NCBI RefSeq assembly: GCF_021054785.1
Contig: NZ_CP088239.1
Location: forward strand, 1,770,001-1,802,000
DNA length: 32,000 nucleotides
Origin: Tannockella kyphosi
GTDB taxonomy: Bacteria; Bacillota_I; Bacilli_A; Erysipelotrichales; Coprobacillaceae
Direction: 5' to 3'
The notes beneath the pieces are model-generated. The model had not been told where the DNA came from, searched no databases, and was given only the letters and a program-made list of their open reading frames with translations. The position numbers and the translations under genes are program-made. Within the stretch, counting starts at the first letter, position 1. Every line of letters begins with the position of its first letter. Shown here one piece after another: positions 1,004 through 14,933 of this stretch.

Positions 1004-2155
1004 ATGATTATTCAAAGTAAAAGAGTTTGGTTTGCGGATCAATTTGTTAGTGCACAAGTTGAAATAGAAGACGGGAAAATTATAGGGATTTATGATTATG
1101 GTAAAAAAGAAGTAGATAAAGATTATGGTACTAAAAGAATTTTACCTGGATTTATTGATATTCATACTCATGGAGCATATGGATTTGATACTAATGATGC
1201 TACTGAAGAAGGATTACGTTATTGGTTAGAAAATATTACGGATGAGGGAGTTACTACTATTTTCCCTACTACTATTACACAAAGTGAAGAAGTATTAACT
1301 GCTGCACTTAAAAATGTAGCGAAGGTAGTAAAAGATGGTTATCGTGGTGCGGATGTTGTAGGGATTCATTTTGAAGGACCTTATTTAGATATGGTTTATA
1401 AAGGAGCTCAACCAGAACAACATATTGTGAAGCCTACTATTGAACAATTTGAACGTTATCAAGAAGCTGCAGGTGGTTTAATTAAATATATTACAATGGC
1501 TACAGAACAAGATGATGATTTTGAATTAACTCGTTATTTAGTACAAAATGGTGTTACTGTTAGTATTGGGCATTCTGCTGCAACTTATGATCAAGCAGTT
1601 CGTGCTTATGGTTATGGTGCTAGAAGTATGACTCATGTATATAATGGGATGACTCCATTTAATCATCGTGAAAATGGATTAGTTGGTGCTGCTTATCGTT
1701 TAAGAGGGATGTATGGAGAAATCATTTGTGATGGAAATCATTCTACTCTTGCTGCATTAAATAATTTCTTTATTTCTAAAGGACCTAATTACGCTATTAT
1801 GGTATCGGATGCCTTAATGTGCAAAGGGAAAAAAGTAGGATCTAAATTCTTGTTTGGTGGAAATGAAATAGAAATCTATCCAGATGGAAGTGCTCATTTA
1901 ACATCTGGTAAGAAAAACTTAGCTGGTTCAACATTACGTTTAAATCAAGGTTTACGAATCTTAATTGAAGAAGCTTGTGTTCCAATGAATACAGCTATTA
2001 ATTCTTGTACTATTAATCCAGCTCGTTGTTTACATATTGATCATTATAAAGGAGCTATCGGGGTTGGTTTTGATGCAGATATGGTTGTCTTAGAAGATGA
2101 TTATGAAGTATTAGAAACATTCTGTAAAGGGGAGATGATGTTGCATGGCTGCTAA
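1004..2155 (+). CDS. nagA: N-acetylglucosamine-6-phosphate deacetylase
   Basis: Motifs PGFIDIHTHG, HFEGPY and SIGHS, about 383 aa, amidohydrolase layout. ATG 1004 preceded by AAGGAG (992..997) is preferred over the track's TTG at 977. Confidence 0.85.
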   Translation: MIIQSKRVWFADQFVSAQVEIEDGKIIGIYDYGKKEVDKDYGTKRILPGFIDIHTHGAYGFDTNDATEEGLRYWLENITDEGVTTIFPTTITQSEEVLTAALKNVAKVVKDGYRGADVVGIHFEGPYLDMVYKGAQPEQHIVKPTIEQFERYQEAAGGLIKYITMATEQDDDFELTRYLVQNGVTVSIGHSAATYDQAVRAYGYGARSMTHVYNGMTPFNHRENGLVGAAYRLRGMYGEIICDGNHSTLAALNNFFISKGPNYAIMVSDALMCKGKKVGSKFLFGGNEIEIYPDGSAHLTSGKKNLAGSTLRLNQGLRILIEEACVPMNTAINSCTINPARCLHIDHYKGAIGVGFDADMVVLEDDYEVLETFCKGEMMLHGC

Positions 2156-2660
2156 AAAGGGAATTTCAGGCAATCATATTTATATTGATAAACGTAATCG
2201 TTATATTCATTATGATAATTTTACAAAAAAAGGTTATCTGATTGATCGTCAATCTGAAGATAAATATAGACTTTATCAAAATAGATTTATTTTCATTGTT
2301 TGTTTAATGGTATTATGTATTGATTTCTTCAGTTCATGGTTTACATTCTTTGGTTTCTTTGCAATATTATTTGTTCTGATTGAATTAGTTTTCCGTTATA
2401 CATTCTTATTAAAGTTACGTACTGTTGCTACTATTGAAAAAGCAACGAAATATACAATGGTAAAAGAAGTAGCTGAATCAAAAGACAAAAAGAAAGTTTT
2501 ATTAAAAATTGGTTTATATTCTGCATTTGGGGTACTGATTATTGTAAATGCTTATTTATCAGATTTTGATACTTCAACATTTATATTGTGTTTAGGACTT
2601 TCTTTCTTTGCATTCTACTATGTATATATTAATATCGTAGCCTATTTTAAAATCAAATAG
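2145..2660 (+). CDS. Membrane protein of unknown function (about 4 TM segments)
   Basis: 171-aa ORF overlapping the nagA stop by 11 nt, with SD GGGGAG upstream. Hydrophobic segments are visible. No recognised family. Confidence 0.6.
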   Translation: MAAKKGISGNHIYIDKRNRYIHYDNFTKKGYLIDRQSEDKYRLYQNRFIFIVCLMVLCIDFFSSWFTFFGFFAILFVLIELVFRYTFLLKLRTVATIEKATKYTMVKEVAESKDKKKVLLKIGLYSAFGVLIIVNAYLSDFDTSTFILCLGLSFFAFYYVYINIVAYFKIK

Positions 2661-2662
2661 TA

Positions 2663-2688
2663 ATAGCAATCCCTTAGGGGATTGCTAT
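2663..2688. terminator. Bidirectional stem-loop between convergent genes
   Basis: ATAGCAATCCC-ttag-GGGATTGCTAT perfect 11-bp stem, followed by TTTTAG on +. Confidence 0.6.
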
Positions 2689-3344
2689 TTTAGTATTTCA
2701 TAATTAAATTGTAGAAAATGATCAATGCATTCATTTGCACCATATTCTATTAATGTCTCTGGTAATGCTTCTTTACTAATACCTACAATATAACCTGCTC
2801 CTATTGATTTAGCACAAGTAATACCTGTTTTACTGTCTTCAAAAATAATACAATCTTTTGCATCAACATTCATATCTTTTAATGTAGCTTGATACATTTC
2901 TATTTTTGTTGGATAACTTCCATCATCATAGAACACATGATTTATATCAAAATAGTCTCCTAATGAAAATATATCAAAGAAAAAATCTATATTTTCTTTA
3001 ATAGAAGCACTTGCTATTGTAAAAGGAATCTTGTTTTCCTTTAAATATTGAAACAGTTCAATAGCACCATCTACTAAATGCAACTTATCTGGATTTTCTA
3101 AACAAATAGCACGATAAAGAGCCTCTTTTTGTAACGAATAATATTCATTTTCCAATTCACTTAATTCTGGTTTTAGATTATGAATCGTTTGTGCATTGTT
3201 TGATCCATGTAATCGAATCCGAATTTCATCATTTATTTTGCTACCTGTTATTTCTTTTACAGTCTTTGCCCATGCTATATCATGAAAAGCGGTATCAAAG
3301 AATAATGTCCCATTAAAATCAAAAATCACTGCCTTTACTTTCAT
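2685..3344 (-). CDS. HAD-superfamily hydrolase (beta-phosphoglucomutase/phosphatase-like subfamily IA)
   Basis: Motif I VIFDFNGTLFFDT, motif II TIASAS, motif IV IIFEDSKTGI. 219 aa. Motif I is D-x-N instead of D-x-D. Confidence 0.75.
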   Translation of the reverse strand: MKVKAVIFDFNGTLFFDTAFHDIAWAKTVKEITGSKINDEIRIRLHGSNNAQTIHNLKPELSELENEYYSLQKEALYRAICLENPDKLHLVDGAIELFQYLKENKIPFTIASASIKENIDFFFDIFSLGDYFDINHVFYDDGSYPTKIEMYQATLKDMNVDAKDCIIFEDSKTGITCAKSIGAGYIVGISKEALPETLIEYGANECIDHFLQFNYEILK

Positions 3345-3442
3345 AGTACCTCCCTATAAATCCTCTTATTAATATCCTAGCATATTTAAGAAGGTATCGC
3401 ATCATTAAATTAGATATTCCTTGTTTTAATAAAAAAAGAGTG

Positions 3443-3709
3443 TTAGTCCACTCCCTTTAATAAGCACAATGTATAACACATTAAATAAACTATTTGTGTT
3501 AATATAAATGAAAAAATCATGTGCATAATTTCTACAAAAGGAATAATTGCAGCAATTATCAATAACAATGTCCCAAATACCTTTACTCCTAAATTCAGGT
3601 ATTGAAAATCTTGTATATGAACATTTCCTTTTCTAATAATATATGCATTAATTAAAAATAATAATATTGCTAAAAATAGAACTAAATTTTTTCCTGCTAT
3701 AAACTCCAT
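3443..3709 (-). CDS. Small membrane protein (3 predicted TM segments), unknown function
   Basis: 88-aa ORF, almost entirely hydrophobic helices. SD GGGAGG lies upstream at about 3718..3723. Confidence 0.5.
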   Translation of the reverse strand: MEFIAGKNLVLFLAILLFLINAYIIRKGNVHIQDFQYLNLGVKVFGTLLLIIAAIIPFVEIMHMIFSFILTQIVYLMCYTLCLLKGVD

Positions 3710-3788
3710 TATATTGTCCTCCCGTGACTATTTTAGTATATCATAAAACATCTTATAAGACTTCTTATATAATAAAAAGATACTTCTA

Positions 3789-4442
3789 CTATGAAATATC
3801 TTTTTCTCTGTATTCATGATAACTCATGTATTCTTCACTGATTGTTTTACCAGTAGCTTCAAAGGTAATGATATCAGCAATATTAATTAATTGATAATCA
3901 TCTAAATATGAAAATAAATATATTTTATCTGATTTGAAAACATATCCTAAACATACTATTTCATCTTTGCCATTAATCAAAGCATATTCTTTAAAATCTA
4001 AACAGTAATTTATTAATTCATATATTCCTTTCGAAAAATCAACAGGACCTGCAGGATTATCAATATAAAAATAGTTAGTAACATTTTGTTGATACATCGT
4101 AGTTAGATTAGGTGCTATTAAAGATAGCTTTTGTAATACTTCTTGATTTCTTGGATTTGCAGTAAACGAACGTGCCATATGTAATGCAGTTACTAAATGA
4201 CCAATATCATGAGGAGTAAAAAAAGAATTCGTGAATTTATAATCTTCATCAATATTCACTCCACCACCAGCTCCTTGTTGACAATATACTGGTATTCCAG
4301 CTAATGCTAGACGATCAATATCTCTTTCTATTGTTTTTGTGCTTACTTCAAATTTTTTTGATAATTCTTTATAAGTTGATTTTTTTATTTTTAATAAATG
4401 GATTAGTAATTCTAACTGTCTATTTTTCATTTTTTCTCCCAT
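3789..4442 (-). CDS. HTH-WYL transcriptional regulator (YafY/PafBC-like)
   Basis: N-terminus LELLIHLLKIKKSTYKELSKKFEVSTKTIERDIDRLALAGIPVYCQQGAGGG matches the HTH_11 pattern of YafY-type regulators. C-terminus KIYLFSYLDDYQLINIADIITFE is WYL-like. An alternative start is ATG 4430. Confidence 0.65.
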   Translation of the reverse strand: MGEKMKNRQLELLIHLLKIKKSTYKELSKKFEVSTKTIERDIDRLALAGIPVYCQQGAGGGVNIDEDYKFTNSFFTPHDIGHLVTALHMARSFTANPRNQEVLQKLSLIAPNLTTMYQQNVTNYFYIDNPAGPVDFSKGIYELINYCLDFKEYALINGKDEIVCLGYVFKSDKIYLFSYLDDYQLINIADIITFEATGKTISEEYMSYHEYREKDIS

Positions 4443-4502: not shown

Positions 4503-4529
4503 AAAAAAAAGAAGTTGTTAAACAACTTC
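4503..4529 (-). terminator. Rho-independent terminator of gene 4529..4912
   Basis: Minus strand reads GAAGTTG-tttaa-CAACTTC followed by T8. The stem abuts the stop codon. Confidence 0.65.
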
Positions 4530-4912
4530 TAGTTTTTAGACAAAATCCATTGATAATCTACTTCTTGATCATGATATATTTTAATATCCAAATTAATCTT
4601 ATCCATAATACAACTAAAATACATAATATTATGATCATACATTTCTTCCATGATTTCTACTGTATTAGCTCTTATATGATCCTTTAACTCTTGAAAAGAT
4701 AATTCTTTACGAAATTCCTCTTGATAATAACTAGCTTTTACATGTTGTTTTTCCAATCTTGCAAAAGTTAATACAGCTTTACCAATACGGAATCCCTCCT
4801 CCCCATGATTATGGTTTGTATAACTTTCATCCAATGTTAATTGCATATTGTTTTCTTGATCAAATGATATATTTCTTAAATACATATTATGTAGTGAAAA
4901 CCTTTTTTTCAT
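4529..4912 (-). CDS. Hypothetical cytoplasmic protein (127 aa)
   Basis: ORF with GGAGGA SD 7 nt before ATG 4912, preferred over the track start at 4945. No recognisable motif. Confidence 0.55.
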   Translation of the reverse strand: MKKRFSLHNMYLRNISFDQENNMQLTLDESYTNHNHGEEGFRIGKAVLTFARLEKQHVKASYYQEEFRKELSFQELKDHIRANTVEIMEEMYDHNIMYFSCIMDKINLDIKIYHDQEVDYQWILSKN

Positions 4913-4947
4913 TGTAATATCCTCCTCGCTTCTATAATATAACAAAC

Positions 4948-5033: not shown

Positions 5034-5219
5034 CTAATACCAAGCATATCCTTGGTTTGATTCTACGTGCATTACATTCATATCTATTTGTTGAATAGAA
5101 TATTCTAATTGTTTATTATAGAAAAATACTGCTGGATTTCCTACTGTAAAACAAACTGCTACCGTAATAACTACTAGCATCATTAATACAAATAATACTC
5201 TTTGCATTTCTATCGTCAT
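5034..5219 (-). CDS. Small single-pass membrane protein (61 aa)
   Basis: One hydrophobic helix (VLFVLMMLVVITVAVCF). Separated by 9 nt from the upstream lipoprotein gene. SD GGGGGA. Confidence 0.45.
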   Translation of the reverse strand: MTIEMQRVLFVLMMLVVITVAVCFTVGNPAVFFYNKQLEYSIQQIDMNVMHVESNQGYAWY

Positions 5220-5228
5220 CGAATCCCC

Positions 5229-5600
5229 CTATTCATCGTTCAAAAGAAAACTGGCAATAGTTGCTCCTTCTTCTATAACGAAATATTCTCGACTTTTATC
5301 TACACCTATTTTATACCCGTACTTTTTTAGTTCCGGACCATTAGTATACTCAAAAGCGACTACATATGTCAATACTTCTTCATAAAGATAACTATATACA
5401 CAGCGACTGATTTTTGCTTCGATCATCTCTTCATTTTCAAACATTCGTTCTAGGTTTTCTTTTGCATATACTTTGGCTTGTTGAGATTGTTTACACAGGT
5501 GCTCTAGATATCCATAACTATCTTCTTTTTCAACCTTATTACATCCCGTTACTCCCGCCAACAATACAACAACTATCAACAAAACCTTTATCAATTTCAC
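5229..5600 (-). CDS. Putative lipoprotein (about 123 aa)
   Basis: From GTG 5600 (SD AAAGGAG 9 nt upstream) the product starts MKLIKVLLIVVVLLAGVTGC, a classical signal peptide with a lipobox Cys. The track start at 5627 is probably too early. Confidence 0.6.
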   Translation of the reverse strand: MKLIKVLLIVVVLLAGVTGCNKVEKEDSYGYLEHLCKQSQQAKVYAKENLERMFENEEMIEAKISRCVYSYLYEEVLTYVVAFEYTNGPELKKYGYKIGVDKSREYFVIEEGATIASFLLNDE

Positions 5601-5634
5601 AATCACCAGCTCCTTTAACACCATCATAACAAAT

Positions 5635-5661
5635 CAAACTAGACACCTTATGTCTAGTTTG
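5635..5661. repeat. Inverted repeat copy 2: C-AAACTAGACA-cctta-TGTCTAGTTT-G
   Basis: Arms identical to copy 1. Lies about 35 nt upstream of the lipoprotein start at 5600. Confidence 0.8.
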
Positions 5662-5768
5662 ACTTTTATTATATAAAAATAGTACAAATAAAAGATACAT
5701 TTCCTCCTAGCGTGCTTGCACCACGCTATAGCCACTTACTTTTTGATTTCTGTAATTCGCTTGGAAGT

Positions 5769-5795
5769 TGAAAAAAGAACGATTTGATCGTTCTT
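5769..5795 (-). terminator. Rho-independent terminator after the Toprim-like gene
   Basis: Minus strand reads AAGAACGAT-caa-ATCGTTCTT followed by TTTTTCAA. It starts about 14 nt after the stop at 5809. Confidence 0.7.
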
Positions 5796-5808: not shown

Positions 5809-6507
5809 CTAATTTTTTTTACATTTGTTCAAATATATTGCAAAGTTAGAATATCTTTGCAACGAATTAGTCTGAAAAGATATAAACTTCCAACTTTCTT
5901 CGTATTCTCCATGCACCACAATTTCCTTTTGATTGAAAAACTCAATGAATTTAGATGGATTATCCATATAGTCAGACTCAAACTGTTTTGCTAGTTTGTT
6001 TTTATCCTCCATTTTTAAGTTTGCTTCACCATGTAATACATCATCCAAATTACATGAAAAGAAATAAACACTATATGGAATACTATTCCATACTTTTGGC
6101 AAATGAATTAACCTGTTCAAATTTTCCCTTTTTTGTTGATTTCTAATCATTATTCTTTTTACATCATTTGTGTTGATTACATCTTTTTCATAATGAATTT
6201 TACATTCATTTTCAACAATAGCTGTGTCCGGAATATATGCACCATCCATATCTACTAGATGCACTACTTCTAGAAAATCTTTTGGTTTGTATGATTGACC
6301 CTATCTTTCTTTGATAAAATCACCGATTTTACCAACAATATTCGTTGAATTAATTCCTGTTTTAGTTGTTAGGTCTCCGTCCGTCATTTCAAAATGTACT
6401 GAACTGTCCGTTAATATTTTTTCTAAACAAATTGATAGACTCGTCACATCATTTATTCCTTCAACAATAAAAAGAACGATTTTTTTGCTATTAGCCATTG
6501 TTATCAC
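5809..6507 (-). pseudogene. Toprim-like (DUF4435/AriB- or RloB-like) nuclease partner. One reading frame interrupted by a single in-frame TAG at 6301..6303.
   Basis: Track ORFs 6301..6507 and 5809..6264 are in the same frame: ...GDFIKER-TAG-GQSYKPKDFLEVVHLVDMDG... The N-terminus KKIVLFIVEGINDV supplies the Toprim Glu, and LVDMDGAY supplies the DxD. The likely start ATG 6498 overlaps the ATPase stop (ATGGCTAA). Confidence 0.6.
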
Positions 6508-7924
6508 CAGCTATTGAAAATGCGTGTCTTATCCTATGAGGACTTGTTATTTCATACATCACTTCGCTTTGTCCGCCTAATATAATATCATGAAAATACA
6601 TGTTTCTGAAATTATGATTTGCCTTCAAATTTTTAAATTTTATGTATCGGTTTTCTTCATTTGTGGTAGTGAATAGAATATTATTTTTATTAATTACCTC
6701 TAATGGGCGTAAGTTATGAGAAGTGAAAATTAATTGACCTTTTCCAAATTTTTCTATGATAGAAAGTATTTCTCCTAATAAGTGTTCAAAAATCCCTGAA
6801 TCAAATTCATCAACAGCAAGTGTCATAGAAGGATCATTATAAACCATTATTAACATATATAGAATGGAAACCAATTTTTTAATACCATCAGACTCATATT
6901 TTAATGGGATTTTTACATCTCCTCGATTTGCAATCAGCTCTGCAACAATAATTTTTTCATTGTTTTCATCAAGATTTGTACCAGTTTTTTGCAAACTTAT
7001 ACTAAGATGTGGAATGATTTCTTTTAGAACTGTATTGCTTGTTTCAATGTTTTTAGCAATTATTTTATAATGTTCTTCTGGGATTTGTGATGTTCCATTT
7101 AAATTCAATCTTCCTTTTAACATTGTCATACTATCTTTATGAGAAGAAACAAAAGCGATTGGGAAGCCAATATTTGCGTTTATTGCTCCTGTTTCTATAT
7201 TACTAATAACATGTAATTTATAAGTAGCATACATATTTATCATTTTAAAGATTTCTTTTACTTCCTCATCTAAGGAACTTTTAAAGATTATGTTTTGCAT
7301 CTTTGGAGAGAAAATAAATGATTTTGACATTCTTTTTGAAAATAATTTTTCGAATCGAACTTCGTCTTCAATTTCTTTTTTTCCGTTTGTTAACTTATGG
7401 TAATTTTTATTTGGAACCACTGGTTTTTCTTCTTCTTCAAAATATTCTAAAACTGGTGTCATTCTTGTCCAGCCTTTTTCTTTTAACCGAGAAATACATA
7501 AGCGTTCCATAGATATGTATATACTACTTTCAAAATCAATTTGTTCTGGTAGTGAAAAAAAGTCTGTATTTTTATCTTCTTGAACTGCTTTTTTTATTTC
7601 AAATTCATAAATACATTTGAACTTTTGTTTTTGAACATTCATTATTTCTAATTCGAATTTTGCAGTACTTTTTTCTTTGTTAGCCTTTATATAATTCTCA
7701 AAATCATTATCCAATCTATTTCCTATTAAGAGATTCTTCAATGTGTATAATGCGTATATTACTGTTGTTTTACCCGAACCATTTTGTCCATATATACCTA
7801 AAATATCGGATTTTTGATCATAAAAATTTTCGCATATTTTTTCTGAAAATGTGATATCTCCATTACCTACATTTTTTAAGTTCTTTATGTTTATTTTATT
7901 AATCCTAACTATTCCTCTATCCAT
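6491..7924 (-). CDS. ABC/OLD-type AAA ATPase (AAA_15/AAA_21-like; AriA/AbiLi-like)
   Basis: Walker A GQNGSGKTT, signature-like YESDGIKKL, Walker B LAVDEFDSGIFEHL, H-loop FTSHN, with a long insertion between Walker A and the signature motif. SD AAGGAG sits 8 nt before ATG 7924. Confidence 0.8.
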   Translation of the reverse strand: MDRGIVRINKINIKNLKNVGNGDITFSEKICENFYDQKSDILGIYGQNGSGKTTVIYALYTLKNLLIGNRLDNDFENYIKANKEKSTAKFELEIMNVQKQKFKCIYEFEIKKAVQEDKNTDFFSLPEQIDFESSIYISMERLCISRLKEKGWTRMTPVLEYFEEEEKPVVPNKNYHKLTNGKKEIEDEVRFEKLFSKRMSKSFIFSPKMQNIIFKSSLDEEVKEIFKMINMYATYKLHVISNIETGAINANIGFPIAFVSSHKDSMTMLKGRLNLNGTSQIPEEHYKIIAKNIETSNTVLKEIIPHLSISLQKTGTNLDENNEKIIVAELIANRGDVKIPLKYESDGIKKLVSILYMLIMVYNDPSMTLAVDEFDSGIFEHLLGEILSIIEKFGKGQLIFTSHNLRPLEVINKNNILFTTTNEENRYIKFKNLKANHNFRNMYFHDIILGGQSEVMYEITSPHRIRHAFSIAGDNNG

Positions 7925-8430
7925 AAAATTTCTCCTTATCCTTATATGTAGTATGATACTATATTTTTATGTGTTATTCAATAGAAAATCTAAAAACGGT
8001 ACATTTTGTATCGATTAAAGTTTATGTATATTTTTGTCAAATTTACCCTTACTTCTATTCTTTTATCAAAAAAATATTTTTCCTTTCTTTTTATTTTTTA
8101 GCTATTTTATTTCTTCTACTTCAATACTTTCTTTTTTTAAGAAATAGAAACTATCAATAAGAGATATCCGCTTAATCCAACATAAAGAATAATTGTAGTA
8201 TTATCTCCTATTTTACTTTTGCAAATTCAATTGAGATACTTCGCTTTTTTGCATTTATAGTGGGAGTTATTTTAGCAATAGCTTTATTTAATTCTAGTCT
8301 ATTTTGTGTTTAAAAAAATCATAGGGAACAATTGGTTTGTTATCATTATTGACGCTACCATCTTGCAATAATACCTTATAACTATATAAGATACATTTGT
8401 TCTTGTTATATAGCTATCTTTCAAGTCACG

Positions 8431-8460
8431 AAAATAAAAAAACTAGGATTTCTCCTAGTT
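8431..8460 (-). terminator. Rho-independent terminator of TSUP gene 1
   Basis: Minus strand reads AACTAGGA-gaaa-TCCTAGTT followed by TTTTTTATTTT. The stem overlaps the stop codon. Confidence 0.7.
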
Positions 8461-9229
8461 AAGGTAAATAAGTAAGGGTAAGCATAATAATACCTAATGA
8501 TGTTAGTACAATACCAGTTGTACGATTTAGTATTTTAGGTGTTGCTTTGTTAGCGAATTTTGCACCAATAAGAGCAAATGTTAATGTTGATAATACGCAT
8601 ATTGTCAGTGTTGGTAAATCAGGAATAATGCCTGTTAACGTAAAATGAGAGATTGAACCAGATAAAGCTGTAAATGTCATAATAAAGACACTTGTTCCAA
8701 CTGCTATTTTAAGTTCATAACCAAGTACGATTGTAAGCAACATTAACATCATAATGCCTCCTCCAGCTCCTACAAAGCCACAAATAAAACCAATTATTGC
8801 ACCACAAAGTATTGGTAAACCTACTTTTAATATACCTTGAAATTGCCTAGGTTGTTGTTCTTTTTCTTCTCGAAAAGATTTGATTAAAAAATTAATTCCC
8901 ATAATAAAAGAAGAATAGATTGTTAAATTCCCAATCGTTGTGCTAGGAACCATATGAGATATAATAGCCCCTATGAACGTAAATATCAAAACACTAACAA
9001 ATAAATACTTACTTCCTTTTAAATCAATATTCTTATTTTTACCATAAGTATAGGCAGAAACAGCACTCGCAAGAACATCAGAAGCCAAAGCTATCCCAAT
9101 AGCTTCATAAGAATTCATTCCTAGAAATGTAATTAACATTGGAGAAATGACAGTTGCAGCACTCATTCCTGCAAGTCCTGTCCCTAGTCCTGCTCCCATT
9201 CCAGCAATTAAACATACGAATAGTTCCAT
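8459..9229 (-). CDS. TSUP-family (TauE/SafE-like) anion permease, paralogue 1
   Basis: 256-aa polytopic membrane protein with duplicated GxGGG motifs (GMGAGLGTG..., GFVGAGGGIMM) typical of TauE/SafE. About 70% identical by eye to 13728..14507. Confidence 0.75.
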   Translation of the reverse strand: MELFVCLIAGMGAGLGTGLAGMSAATVISPMLITFLGMNSYEAIGIALASDVLASAVSAYTYGKNKNIDLKGSKYLFVSVLIFTFIGAIISHMVPSTTIGNLTIYSSFIMGINFLIKSFREEKEQQPRQFQGILKVGLPILCGAIIGFICGFVGAGGGIMMLMLLTIVLGYELKIAVGTSVFIMTFTALSGSISHFTLTGIIPDLPTLTICVLSTLTFALIGAKFANKATPKILNRTTGIVLTSLGIIMLTLTYLP

Positions 9230-9881: not shown

Positions 9882-10337
9882 ATGAGTGATATCAAGTTTT
9901 GTAAAACTTTCCATTTTCTTAGTGCTAGTTTAGAAAAAACAATGAATAATAATTTAAAGAAAAAAGATCTTAGTTTTTCTCAAGGTATTGTATTGTTGTG
10001 GTTAAGTAAAGAAGATAGTTTATCTTTGCCTATAAAAATAATTGAAAAAAGGTTTAGAAAAGCACAACCTACTACTTTAGGTATTATTCAAAGGTTAGAA
10101 CAAAAACAGCTTATTTCTACTTATTTAAGTGATCATCATAAAAAAATAGTTACTATTACAAAAGAAGGATTATTGCTTATTGATTTTATTGAAGAAAATA
10201 TAAAGCAAGCAGATGCATTGATTTTTCAAGATTTTAGTAAAGAACAACAACTGATGTTTCTTGAGTTATTAGGGAAAGCAGAATTAAATTTATTAAATTA
10301 TTATGGTATGGATAGGGGAGATTATGATGAAGAATAA
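9882..10337 (+). CDS. MarR-family transcriptional regulator
   Basis: 151 aa with a winged-HTH core (LSFSQGIVLLWL...IEKRFRKAQPTTLGIIQRLEQKQLI). Overlaps the downstream MATE gene. Confidence 0.75.
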   Translation: MSDIKFCKTFHFLSASLEKTMNNNLKKKDLSFSQGIVLLWLSKEDSLSLPIKIIEKRFRKAQPTTLGIIQRLEQKQLISTYLSDHHKKIVTITKEGLLLIDFIEENIKQADALIFQDFSKEQQLMFLELLGKAELNLLNYYGMDRGDYDEE

Positions 10338-11688
10338 TTTAGAAGAATTAAATAAGTTACCAGTTAGTAAAGCGGTATTGAAGAATGCAATACCTTCGAT
10401 GTTAGCGATGTTAATGGTATTAATATATAATATGGCAGATTTATTTTTTATTGGTCAAACAGGAAATGATTTGTTTGTTGCATCTGTGTCTTTAACTTCT
10501 CCAATATTTCTATTATTTATGTCTTGTGGGAATGTTTTTGGATTAGGGGGAGCTTCTTTTATTTCTAGAAGTTTAGGAGAAGGAAATCATGATATTGTGA
10601 AACGTATTTCTTCTTTTTGTTTTTGGGGTTGTATTGCAGTAGGAACTTTGTTATCAATTAGTGTCTTTTGTTCTATTGATACTATTATTAATATTTTAGG
10701 GGCTAGTAGCCAGACTGGTCCTATTGTGAAGAGTTATATTCAAGTATTTTGTTTGTGTGGACCTTTTTTGTTAATATCGACTTGTTATTCTGCATTAATT
10801 CGTGGGGAAGGAAAACCACAAAAGGCAATGACGGGGATGTTGGTTGGGAATATCGTAAATATTGTTTTAGATCCTATTTTTATTTTAGTGTTTAATATGG
10901 GTGTAGAAGGGGCTGCTATTGCTACTGTGATCGGGAATGTTTGTAGTACTATTTTCTACTTACGATATTTATCGAATAAAAAAACATTATTAAGTATCCA
11001 CCCTAAGGATTTTAGTATGAAGGAAACTATTTTCAAAAGTGTCGTTATGATCGGGGTTCCAGCATCATTAACTTCTATTTTAAATGGTGTTTCACAAGTA
11101 CTTCTAAATAACAATATGTCACAATATGGTGATTATGCAGTAGCAGGTATTGGTGTTGCTTTAAAAGTAACGATGATTTCAACAATGATATGTATCGGTA
11201 TTGCCATGGGTATTCAACCACTATTGGGATATTGTATTGGTTCAAAAAACGAAGAGAGATATCATAAAATATTTAACTTCTCTATTCTATTTGCACTAGG
11301 CTTAAGTGCTACTCTAACTGTTTTATGTTACTTAGGATTAGAACATATTGTGAATGCTTTTGTTAGTGATAGTGAATCTTTTGAATATGCTTATTATTTT
11401 GCACAAGTTATGATTTCTACAGGAGTAGTGATGAGTATGTCATACATCCTAGCAAACGCCCTGCAAGCAGCCGGTGCTGCTAAGTCAGCCTTAGTTATTA
11501 ATACTTGTCGTCAGGGTACTATCTATATTCCATTGTTATTTATTATGGGAGACTTATTTGGAATTGATGGATTAGTATTTGCACAACCAATTTCTGATGT
11601 TATTTCAGTTCTACTTGCATTTACCATGTATAAAATAGTTTCAAAGAATTTTTTTCCTAAAAAAACAGAAATAGAAACAAACAGCTAG
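10324..11688 (+). CDS. MATE-family multidrug efflux transporter
   Basis: About 454 aa and 12 TM segments. N-terminus LPVSKAVLKNAIPSMLAMLMVLIYNMADLFFIG is typical of MATE/NorM. ATG 10324 after SD GGGGAG is preferred over the track start at 10303. Confidence 0.85.
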   Translation: MMKNNLEELNKLPVSKAVLKNAIPSMLAMLMVLIYNMADLFFIGQTGNDLFVASVSLTSPIFLLFMSCGNVFGLGGASFISRSLGEGNHDIVKRISSFCFWGCIAVGTLLSISVFCSIDTIINILGASSQTGPIVKSYIQVFCLCGPFLLISTCYSALIRGEGKPQKAMTGMLVGNIVNIVLDPIFILVFNMGVEGAAIATVIGNVCSTIFYLRYLSNKKTLLSIHPKDFSMKETIFKSVVMIGVPASLTSILNGVSQVLLNNNMSQYGDYAVAGIGVALKVTMISTMICIGIAMGIQPLLGYCIGSKNEERYHKIFNFSILFALGLSATLTVLCYLGLEHIVNAFVSDSESFEYAYYFAQVMISTGVVMSMSYILANALQAAGAAKSALVINTCRQGTIYIPLLFIMGDLFGIDGLVFAQPISDVISVLLAFTMYKIVSKNFFPKKTEIETNS

Positions 11689-13727: not shown

Positions 13728-14507
13728 TTATAAAGCTGTAATATATTGAGAAGCAACCATAAATACCCCTAATGTTAAGAGTACTATTCCTGTGGCACGA
13801 TTCAATACTTTTGGTTGGGCTTTGTTCGCAAATCTTGCTCCTAATGTTGCAAAGAATAATGTGGATGAAATACATAATAACAATACTGTAACATCTGGGA
13901 AAACTCCATTTAATGCAAAATGGGAAGTAGCTCCAAATAGTGCAGTAAAAGTCATAATAAAGACACTTGTTCCAACTGCTGTTTTTAATTCATAATGAAG
14001 TACTGCAGTTAAAAGCATTAACATCATAATACCTCCACCAGCACCAATAAATCCACATATAAATCCAATTAATGCCCCACATAAAATAGGTAATAATTTT
14101 TTCCAAATACCAGTATACTCTTTATGTTGTTTTGGAGCTTCGTCTTTGAATGATTTCATTAAAAAATTAATACCCATCAATACACAACCATACACTGTAA
14201 AATCACCCATTGTAGTAGCTGGCACTAAATGTGCTACAAATGCACCTATTAATGTAAATACTAAAACACTAACAAACAAAGATTTACTTCTCTTTAAATC
14301 AATATTTTTATTCTTACCATATGTATAAGCTGATGCAGCACTTGCTAATACATCAGAAGCTAAAGCTATTCCAATTGCTTCAAAGGCATTCATACCTAAA
14401 AATGAAACAAGCATTGGTGAAATAACAACAGCTGCACTCATTCCTGCAAAACCAGTTCCTAATCCTGCACCCATCCCTGCAATAATACAAATTAAAACTG
14501 TTTCCAT
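13728..14507 (-). CDS. TSUP-family (TauE/SafE-like) anion permease, paralogue 2
   Basis: 259 aa, collinear with 8459..9229. DNA stretches are nearly identical (GTCATAATAAAGACACTTGTTCCAACTGCT occurs in both genes). Confidence 0.75.
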   Translation of the reverse strand: METVLICIIAGMGAGLGTGFAGMSAAVVISPMLVSFLGMNAFEAIGIALASDVLASAASAYTYGKNKNIDLKRSKSLFVSVLVFTLIGAFVAHLVPATTMGDFTVYGCVLMGINFLMKSFKDEAPKQHKEYTGIWKKLLPILCGALIGFICGFIGAGGGIMMLMLLTAVLHYELKTAVGTSVFIMTFTALFGATSHFALNGVFPDVTVLLLCISSTLFFATLGARFANKAQPKVLNRATGIVLLTLGVFMVASQYITAL

Positions 14508-14516
14508 AATCTTCTC

Positions 14517-14933
14517 CTAATCTTCTAAGTTATTTGAAATCTGTTGAATGACATTTTCAAATATTTTTTGTTCTTCATCCTTTATTCCTAAAAAAGCTTT
14601 ATTTCTAAATTCTTCTAAGCATTGATGATATAACAATATAATCGGTTCTCCTTTTTCTAATAAAAATAAGTTATATACCTTTTTATTTGATAATGATCCT
14701 TCTTTTAATAAATAACCATTATTTACTAAATTAGTAATTGCTTTTGAAACATAAGATTTTGCATAATCTTTTGATTTCATAATTTCAGTGAACGTATTAT
14801 TTTCAGGAAATTCACTAAGAAAAACTAGTATGTCTAATTCTATTAAATTTAATCCTGTTTGTTCTAATAAACCATTAAAATAATTCTTTCTTTTTAAATT
14901 AATAAAATGTGTTGTTTCTCTTAAATCAATCAT
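14517..14933 (-). CDS. MarR-like winged-helix transcriptional regulator
   Basis: 138 aa with LDILVFLSEFPENNTFTEIMKSKDYAKSYVSKAITNLVNNGYLLKE. SD AAAGGAGGA. Lies 9 nt upstream of TSUP gene 2. Confidence 0.65.
   Translation of the reverse strand: MIDLRETTHFINLKRKNYFNGLLEQTGLNLIELDILVFLSEFPENNTFTEIMKSKDYAKSYVSKAITNLVNNGYLLKEGSLSNKKVYNLFLLEKGEPIILLYHQCLEEFRNKAFLGIKDEEQKIFENVIQQISNNLED

Follow-up and report, generated by a model that had tools for sequence, protein, structure and literature searches.

We describe a two-gene cassette on the minus strand of a 32,000-nucleotide stretch of the Tannockella kyphosi genome (assembly GCF_021054785.1, contig NZ_CP088239.1, positions 1,770,001 to 1,802,000; this whole stretch is termed the window, and local coordinates refer to it). 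The cassette probably represents an autonomous, horizontally mobile module that consists of an ATP-binding cassette (ABC) ATPase and a separately encoded Toprim nuclease. Gene A (6491..7924) is an intact open reading frame (ORF) for an ABC/SMC-type ATPase (AAA_21/AAA_15) of 477 amino acid residues. Gene B (5809..6498), with 229 sense positions and a stop, encodes a predicted Toprim-superfamily protein and is interrupted at codon 66 in this organism. The module is recognized by the domain identities of its products, invariant catalytic-type residues, strict pairing of the two genes and a patchy, mobile distribution. An original prediction, made without database searches, had proposed an ABC-type AAA_15/21 ATPase with a separate Toprim-like protein, of the defence or abortive-infection type, and the matches of A to AAA_21, AbiLi, AriA and mad3 that are described below support this proposal.

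Pairing and distribution of the two genes

In every one of the 86 loci with room upstream of B, a homologue of A was found directly upstream (tblastn, fetched loci), so that the two genes are conserved as neighbours. The ATPases upstream of B homologues are 470–515 residues long and belong to AAA_21/AAA_15; the ends of the two genes abut or overlap, and the flanks are unrelated. Across 83 loci, the closer A is to its counterpart in the window, the closer B tends to be to its own (sequence identities, Pearson r = 0.85). When the flanking ORFs were clustered, A (84 of 85 loci) and B (85 of 85) were the only conserved genes; a third conserved gene was not found in these loci, the next real neighbour cluster being present in at most 8 of them. 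The flanks are heterogeneous, with 155 Pfam families among the 148 nearest neighbours of the pair.

A scan of 185,579 species genomes (one genome each) identified relatives of the pair's B in at least 463 species. The hosts are mostly Clostridia (Lachnospiraceae, Clostridium, Acetivibrio and others), with a few Fibrobacter, Selenomonadaceae and Erysipelotrichaceae. Among 72,556 plasmids searched with tblastn, nine records matched A, and the A–B pair was confirmed on the two that were inspected. The sole match among 50,697 phage records is the 132.5-kb Clostridioides phage-plasmid pCD1602_4 (record unannotated), which carries an intact pair (CP069348.1, 28037..30005; 38% and 41% identity to the A and B queries, respectively). 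Some pairs have defence-type neighbours (KAP NTPase/PDC-S20, SoFic, LmuA, DolB, Schlafen-like), and some are found next to genes of integrative and conjugative elements (ICEs), such as TraG, AAA_10 and NlpC/P60, or next to recombinases. Taken together, the strict pairing, the unrelated flanks and the patchy, mobile spread indicate that A–B behaves as a small autonomous accessory cassette.

In the Acetivibrio cellulolyticus locus (JH556653.1), the region 1386..4329 directly upstream of an intact pair looks like a small defence/counter-defence cluster. It encodes a P-loop NTPase of the KAP family (PADLOC PDC-S20, 3.8e-104) together with a protein that has a metallo-beta-lactamase fold and an Apyc1-type (Anti-Pycsar) Pfam match.

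Gene B

The gene B frame starts with MANSKKIVLFIVEGINDV; it carries the LFIVEG motif with Glu13 at 6457..6474 and, further along, Asp83-Met-Asp85 at 6244..6252 within HLVDMDGAY (all on the minus strand). With the TAG at codon 66 read through, B of the window had no match in Pfam, NCBIfam, PADLOC (v2.0.0, 2023) or PHROGs. Its homologues are many, full-length (225–245 residues) and 40–59% identical, and none has a precomputed Pfam domain. Searched with a profile, 1.84 billion cluster representatives yielded a family of 1,858 clusters (50% identity) at E <= 1e-3 and 708 clusters at E <= 1e-30. Across 142 diverse members E13, G14, D42, D83 and D85 are invariant, and the motifs are therefore not chance matches; the Glu plus DxD signature that had been noticed by eye in the downstream frame is thus a property of the family. 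A second block, comprising Y-F-S-C-N-x-D/E-H-V-L-H, W203 and N-S-L-x-R-x-S-N, is nearly invariant in the same members.

The Toprim fold is marked by a conserved glutamate that closes beta1 and a DxD motif that follows beta3, within an alpha/beta core of beta2-beta1-beta3-beta4 order. In the AlphaFold (AF2) model of B (predicted local distance difference test score, pLDDT, 93.6; predicted template modelling score, pTM, 0.90), E13 comes directly after strand 6–12 and the DxD ends strand 75–83. The predicted order of elements, beta1-E, alpha, beta2, alpha, beta3-DxD and then beta4, is the Toprim arrangement, so that the model and the invariant residues together show the marks of the fold.

We also scanned the 142 members singly at a lax threshold, where all Pfam matches fall below curated thresholds. 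Toprim was matched by 37 members (best 1e-3), DUF4276 by 35 (best 2e-4) and OLD-like_TOPRIM by 23, and these three Toprim-type families stand out among the 118 that were hit, nearly all others matching one or two members. The weak Toprim-type matches are collinear with the Glu..DxD stretch (B residues ~6–100 against profile positions 1–66/96); for example, residues 6–84 align to positions 1–66/96 of Toprim and residues 24–119 to positions 1–69/192 of DUF4276. The matches to Toprim itself span B residues ~6–87. No member reached the DUF4276 (PF14103) gathering threshold of 30.2 bits, one example scoring 13.1 bits, and neither RloB nor DUF4435 was recurrent among the 142. The PADLOC models that recur in the family (mad4, HEC-01B, PDC-M38B and PDC-M31B) all describe partners of ATPases, and AbiLii is not among them. 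HEC-01B matches about 10 of the 142 members, down to 5.5e-5, in a partial fashion that covers B residues 10–86 only, and the majority consensus of the family gave only weak PADLOC matches to HEC-01B and mad4.

Searches of PDB sequences with two profiles of the B family, a smaller and a larger one, returned nothing real. When the B model was compared with PDB structures using Foldseek, the matches were weak and included a Topo II Toprim domain and the PARIS-complex chain 8ux9_A (306 residues). Against models of viral proteins (BFVD), the sole good match was an "RloB-like protein" of a phage, over the whole length (E 3.8e-4, probability 0.99). Both DUF4276 (Mad4) and RloB share this Glu plus DxD signature and have already been assigned to the Toprim superfamily (PMC12065111). 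Judging from the invariant motifs, the predicted fold and the recurrent collinear weak matches, B is a Toprim-superfamily protein, an assignment that holds at the superfamily level only. It is nearest to DUF4276 and generic Toprim in sequence and RloB-like in its predicted fold, and it is most probably a metal-dependent nuclease of a family modelled by none of the tested libraries.

Gene A

The coordinates of gene A and its ATPase motifs had been described correctly in the original prediction. They comprise Walker A GQNGSGKTT (residues 46–54, 7763..7789), a signature-like YESDGIKKL (residues 343–351, 6872..6898), a Walker B/D-loop segment LAVDEFDSGIFEHL (residues 369–382, 6779..6820), which includes LAVDEFDSG (residues 369–377), and the H-loop FTSHN (residues 400–404, 6713..6727), all on the minus strand. 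More than 5,000 homologues of A are detectable, and an alignment of 41 of them shows no variation in the residues of the Walker A, signature, Walker B and H-loop motifs.

Pfam AAA_21 matches A at 3.5e-14, over its threshold, and AAA_15 (31.7 bits against a cutoff of 32.1) and SMC_N remain under theirs. The top PADLOC model out of 21 is AbiLi (1.9e-27; model positions 50–278 of 326 only), followed by AriA (3e-15, strong mainly over residues 301–404), mad3 (2e-12), PtuA models and HEC-01A (1.8e-7). The profile-HMM (hidden Markov model) and PADLOC searches suggested at the outset thus divided between the two genes: A gave the matches just listed, whereas read-through B of the window had no PADLOC match and no significant match to DUF4435, RloB, DUF4276 or Toprim. 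NCBIfam equivalogs fell far short for A (MADS3 27.5 bits, cutoff 420; recF 20 bits, cutoff 172), and a PDB sequence search with A found nothing real. For the AlphaFold (AF2) model of A (pLDDT 82), the nearest folds in Foldseek are PtuA chains of Septu/retron complexes and Rad50/SMC heads, with E-values down to 1e-13. From the profile matches, the invariant motifs and the fold it follows that A is an intact ABC-type ATPase of a class found in defence systems.

An antisense ORF of about 120 codons is conserved inside gene A (39 loci; for example 5276..5584, minus strand, in the Acetivibrio cellulolyticus locus); it is a probable ORF-calling artefact of AT-rich coding DNA.

Comparison with named systems

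ATPase plus Toprim is an architecture of a known kind, found in PARIS, AbiL/RloAB, MADS3-4 and HEC-01. Judged by sequence profiles, A/B lacks what defines the effector side of each: DUF4435, RloB and AbiLii are missing, the DUF4276 similarity stays under its threshold, and the pair lies in neither a MADS nor an Hma context. Its expected resistance to assignment to a named subtype therefore stood up for every family tested.

In AbiL (AbiLi plus AbiLii) of Lactococcus lactis and RloA/RloB of Campylobacter, as in A/B, a gene for an ABC/Rad50-like ATPase is followed by a gene for a Toprim-superfamily protein of about 200 residues. The cassette might accordingly be a divergent AbiL, a named system of the AbiLi plus AbiLii/RloB type that HMMs miss on the effector side. 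We regard this as unlikely. AbiLi is the best PADLOC match of A, the best fold match of B is a full-length RloB-like phage protein, and one ATPase homologous to A bears the UniRef name "Putative abortive phage resistance". Yet the AbiLi match leaves out both ends of the model, and support for an RloB (PF13707) or AbiLii effector comes from the fold match only: neither was matched by B or recurrently by its family, where DUF4276, Toprim and OLD-like_TOPRIM recur instead. Furthermore, the plasmid search with A found no lactococcal AbiL plasmid, the fetched loci held no paralogous AbiLi-like ATPase with an RloB partner, and, in regard to RloAB, the pair shows no link to type I restriction–modification loci.

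PARIS (AriA plus AriB, OLD-family class 4) likewise has separate, co-transcribed genes for the ATPase and the Toprim effector. Its AriA model matches A, AAA_15 narrowly misses its cutoff there, and 8ux9_A is a weak fold match to B; DUF4435 (PF14491), however, is matched neither by B of the window nor recurrently by its family. Both A and B had been thought small for PARIS proteins. This does not apply to A, since its 477 residues are similar in size to AriA of 53–55 kDa (PMC11464382), but it does apply to B, of 229 residues and about 26 kDa, when compared to the DUF4435 protein AriB of 35 kDa (PMC11464382).

Similarity to MADS is seen on both sides, A matching mad3 and mad4/DUF4276 being the commonest effector-model matches of the B family, but the MADS3 score is a small fraction of its cutoff and no methyltransferase or other mad gene is conserved in the 85 loci. 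The Hma-embedded candidate HEC-01 (ABC ATPase plus TOPRIM) and the PADLOC candidates PDC-M31 and PDC-M38 have the same architecture as A/B. The matches to HEC-01 are weak and partial for both partners (HEC-01A to A, HEC-01B to some B members), and A/B is not Hma-embedded; no activity has been demonstrated for HEC-01 itself (bioRxiv 10.1101/2024.01.29.577857).

Among solved structures, the PtuA chains of Septu/retron PtuA–PtuB come closest in fold to A. There an ATPase oligomer controls a small nuclease, as is proposed for A/B; PtuB, however, is an HNH protein, whereas B is Toprim-like. Finally, OLD classes 1–3 (P2 Old, Gabija GajA and retron-associated) share ABC ATPase and Toprim chemistry with A/B, but their two domains are fused, in contrast to the separate genes in all 86 loci. 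Moreover, no GajB/UvrD-like or reverse transcriptase partner is conserved near A/B.

Proposed mechanism

By analogy with PARIS, Septu and OLD, an oligomer of ATPase A would bind the small nuclease B, hold it inactive and sense infection. A trigger from the phage, acting along with the binding or hydrolysis of ATP, would then free or activate B, whose Glu13/Asp83-x-Asp85 metal site, probably with Asp42, could cut nucleic acid. The substrate might be tRNA or another RNA if B resembles AriB, or DNA if it resembles OLD, and cleavage would lead to growth arrest and abort the infection. PtuA–PtuB and the OLD nucleases work on principles related to those of PARIS. In PARIS itself, AriB is sequestered by a hexamer of AriA and cleaves tRNA-Lys once a trigger has released it (PMC11464382); the literature base for the analogy also covers ATPase–effector complexes (PMC12065111) and AbiL (PMC13064643). 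Context that bears on a defence role comes from the patchy distribution, the carriage on mobile elements and the occasional defence-gene neighbours.

Several points weigh against a mobile ATPase–Toprim nuclease module with such a role. Many homologous loci lie amid housekeeping genes and not in obvious defence islands. No B profile match reached a curated threshold, and neither the window protein nor the family consensus has a Pfam Toprim match. Foldseek of B against the PDB gave nothing below 1e-3, and an hhalign comparison of the B profile with P2 Old was not significant, although FIVEG falls on LLVEGKTE of Old. The A–B complex, the trigger and the substrate are suggested purely by analogy, and HEC-01, a weak match of B, gave no protection in the one published assay (bioRxiv 10.1101/2024.01.29.577857).

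The same organization could also be read as a toxin–antitoxin or addiction cassette that primarily stabilizes mobile elements, with B as toxin and A as antitoxin instead of phage sensor, which we consider improbable. In its favour, the two genes overlap within a compact operon, they are carried by plasmids, by a phage-plasmid and in ICE-like contexts, and the loss of a putative toxin next to an intact ATPase in the window fits toxin–antitoxin decay; PARIS itself acts as a type II toxin–antitoxin system (PMC13064643). Most loci, however, are chromosomal and lie amid ordinary genes, and this alternative is in any case compatible with a defence role, as the known ATPase–Toprim pairs that resemble toxin–antitoxin systems are defence systems.

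The interrupted copy of gene B

The premature in-frame TAG at codon 66 of B (6301..6303, minus strand) separates Glu13 from the DxD motif, and in the B model the break sits inside the Toprim fold, between beta2/alpha2 and beta3. The sole 100% match to B is a 146-residue "hypothetical protein" from Tannockella kyphosi, which shows that annotators called only the fragment after the stop. Nine sequencing runs, each assembled independently, agree at 100% identity over the region with the TAG, which rules out an assembly error as its source. The column aligned to codon 66 is variable among homologues and mostly Ser, and thus a single TCG-to-TAG change would explain the stop.

The full-length protein could in principle still be made here, by read-through or recoding of the TAG or by reassembly of the two fragments, leaving a functional system, and the frame past the TAG is indeed open and conserved. 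We find this highly improbable and reject recoding and read-through. TAG ends 17 of the 37 long ORFs (at least 80 codons) of the window, B itself included, and the window has no tRNA gene. The variable column at codon 66 holds no conserved special residue, the break falls within the fold, and B is uninterrupted in all 85 other loci. The TAG is a genuine stop in Tannockella kyphosi. Since it parts Glu13 from DxD inside the fold, the B effector is most likely inactive here, with A still intact; the local copy of B has most likely become a pseudogene, which leaves A an orphan. Such inactivation is a common fate of toxic defence effectors.

The other 20 of the 37 long ORFs end in TAA and none in TGA, and every in-frame TGA precedes a likely start codon. 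TGA therefore seems to be avoided in the window, as a stop and as a sense codon alike, and TAG is used unusually often for a genome of 29.6% GC.

A housekeeping DNA-repair pair akin to RecF/RecR or SbcCD is hardly credible: A does match SMC_N/RecF-type profiles weakly, its fold resembles Rad50 heads and RecR, too, carries a Toprim domain, but the recF score lies far below its cutoff, the pair is patchy (at least 463 of 185,579 species genomes), has unrelated flanks and travels on plasmids and a phage-plasmid, and B, most likely a pseudogene here, is dispensable. The original prediction had named three outcomes that would speak against it: a downstream frame with neither a significant Toprim-type match nor conserved Glu and DxD residues, genes not conserved as neighbours, and an ATPase of ordinary ABC-transporter or RecF/SMC housekeeping clades. 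None of them came about; the residues proved conserved, the genes paired and the recF score of the ATPase far below its cutoff.

Organization of the local cassette

A and B overlap by eight nucleotides (ATGGCTAA, 6491..6498, minus strand), with the TAA of A at 6491..6493 and the ATG of B at 6496..6498, in agreement with the reported overlap of the A stop with the start of a frame of about 230 codons (229 by our count). This overlap suggests translational coupling of the two genes, and the commonest geometry in homologous loci is an overlap of 8 or 11 nucleotides (crude in-frame ATG scan). About 30 nucleotides upstream of the A start lies a promoter-like site, TTGAAT-17-TATCAT (7953..7981, minus strand), which is a consensus match only and constitutes weak evidence, as promoter-like sites were fewer than in shuffled controls. 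A terminator-like hairpin, AAGAACGAU-CAA-AUCGUUCUU followed by U6 (5769..5795, minus strand; RNAfold -8.5 kcal/mol), lies 14 nucleotides past the B stop, although a consensus scan missed it. The gap that separates the B operon from the next gene also contains a near-perfect inverted repeat with a 12-bp stem (TCAAACTAGACA-CCTTA-TGTCTAGTTTGA) and a T-rich tract (5634..5662), which could be a terminator or an operator.

The original prediction had further placed the pair in the company of a WYL regulator and several tiny genes. The regulator is a 217-residue HTH_11 protein (3789..4442, minus strand) whose N-terminal half matches the PADLOC "WYL" model at 2e-20, and four small unannotated ORFs accompany it (3443..3709, 4529..4945, 5034..5219 and 5229..5627). 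None has a homologue in the 85 pair-carrying loci, which rules them out as parts of the system.

The cassette is flanked by housekeeping genes, namely a HAD hydrolase, TauE and a YbaK-type tRNA_edit protein, and farther away by a MATE exporter (10303..11688) and MarR-family regulators; no compositional anomaly was detected around it. Two genes for TauE/SafE-family membrane proteins lie about 5 kb apart (8459..9229 and 13728..14507, both on the minus strand). MarR-type regulators are encoded near them, at 14517..14933 (Pfam MarR_2) and at 9882..10337 (recognized by eye, without a Pfam match).

Implications

Modules of ABC ATPases and Toprim proteins (OLD, Gabija, PARIS, AbiL, MADS3-4) are a major theme of bacterial immunity, and to our knowledge only PARIS and Gabija among them are understood mechanistically. 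While the concept is not new, the pair adds another effector family, which is widespread, bears a clear catalytic signature, is strictly coupled to an ATPase and escapes the tested profile libraries. We tentatively suggest, as a possibility, that the A/B pair is an unnamed, Clostridia-centred branch of ABC-ATPase plus Toprim immune systems, which none of the tested Pfam, NCBIfam, PHROGs and PADLOC models picks up and which censuses of defence systems in gut and rumen Firmicutes have thus probably overlooked. Such a branch may have its own trigger and nucleic-acid target.

The locus in Tannockella kyphosi is a decayed copy of limited value, which illustrates the loss of a presumably toxic effector. 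For further work, intact homologues are at hand, such as those of Acetivibrio cellulolyticus, Lachnoclostridium phytofermentans and the Clostridioides phage-plasmid pCD1602_4. As the B family is centred on Clostridia, Lachnospiraceae and related gut and rumen anaerobes, a model for B would improve defence annotation in these organisms.

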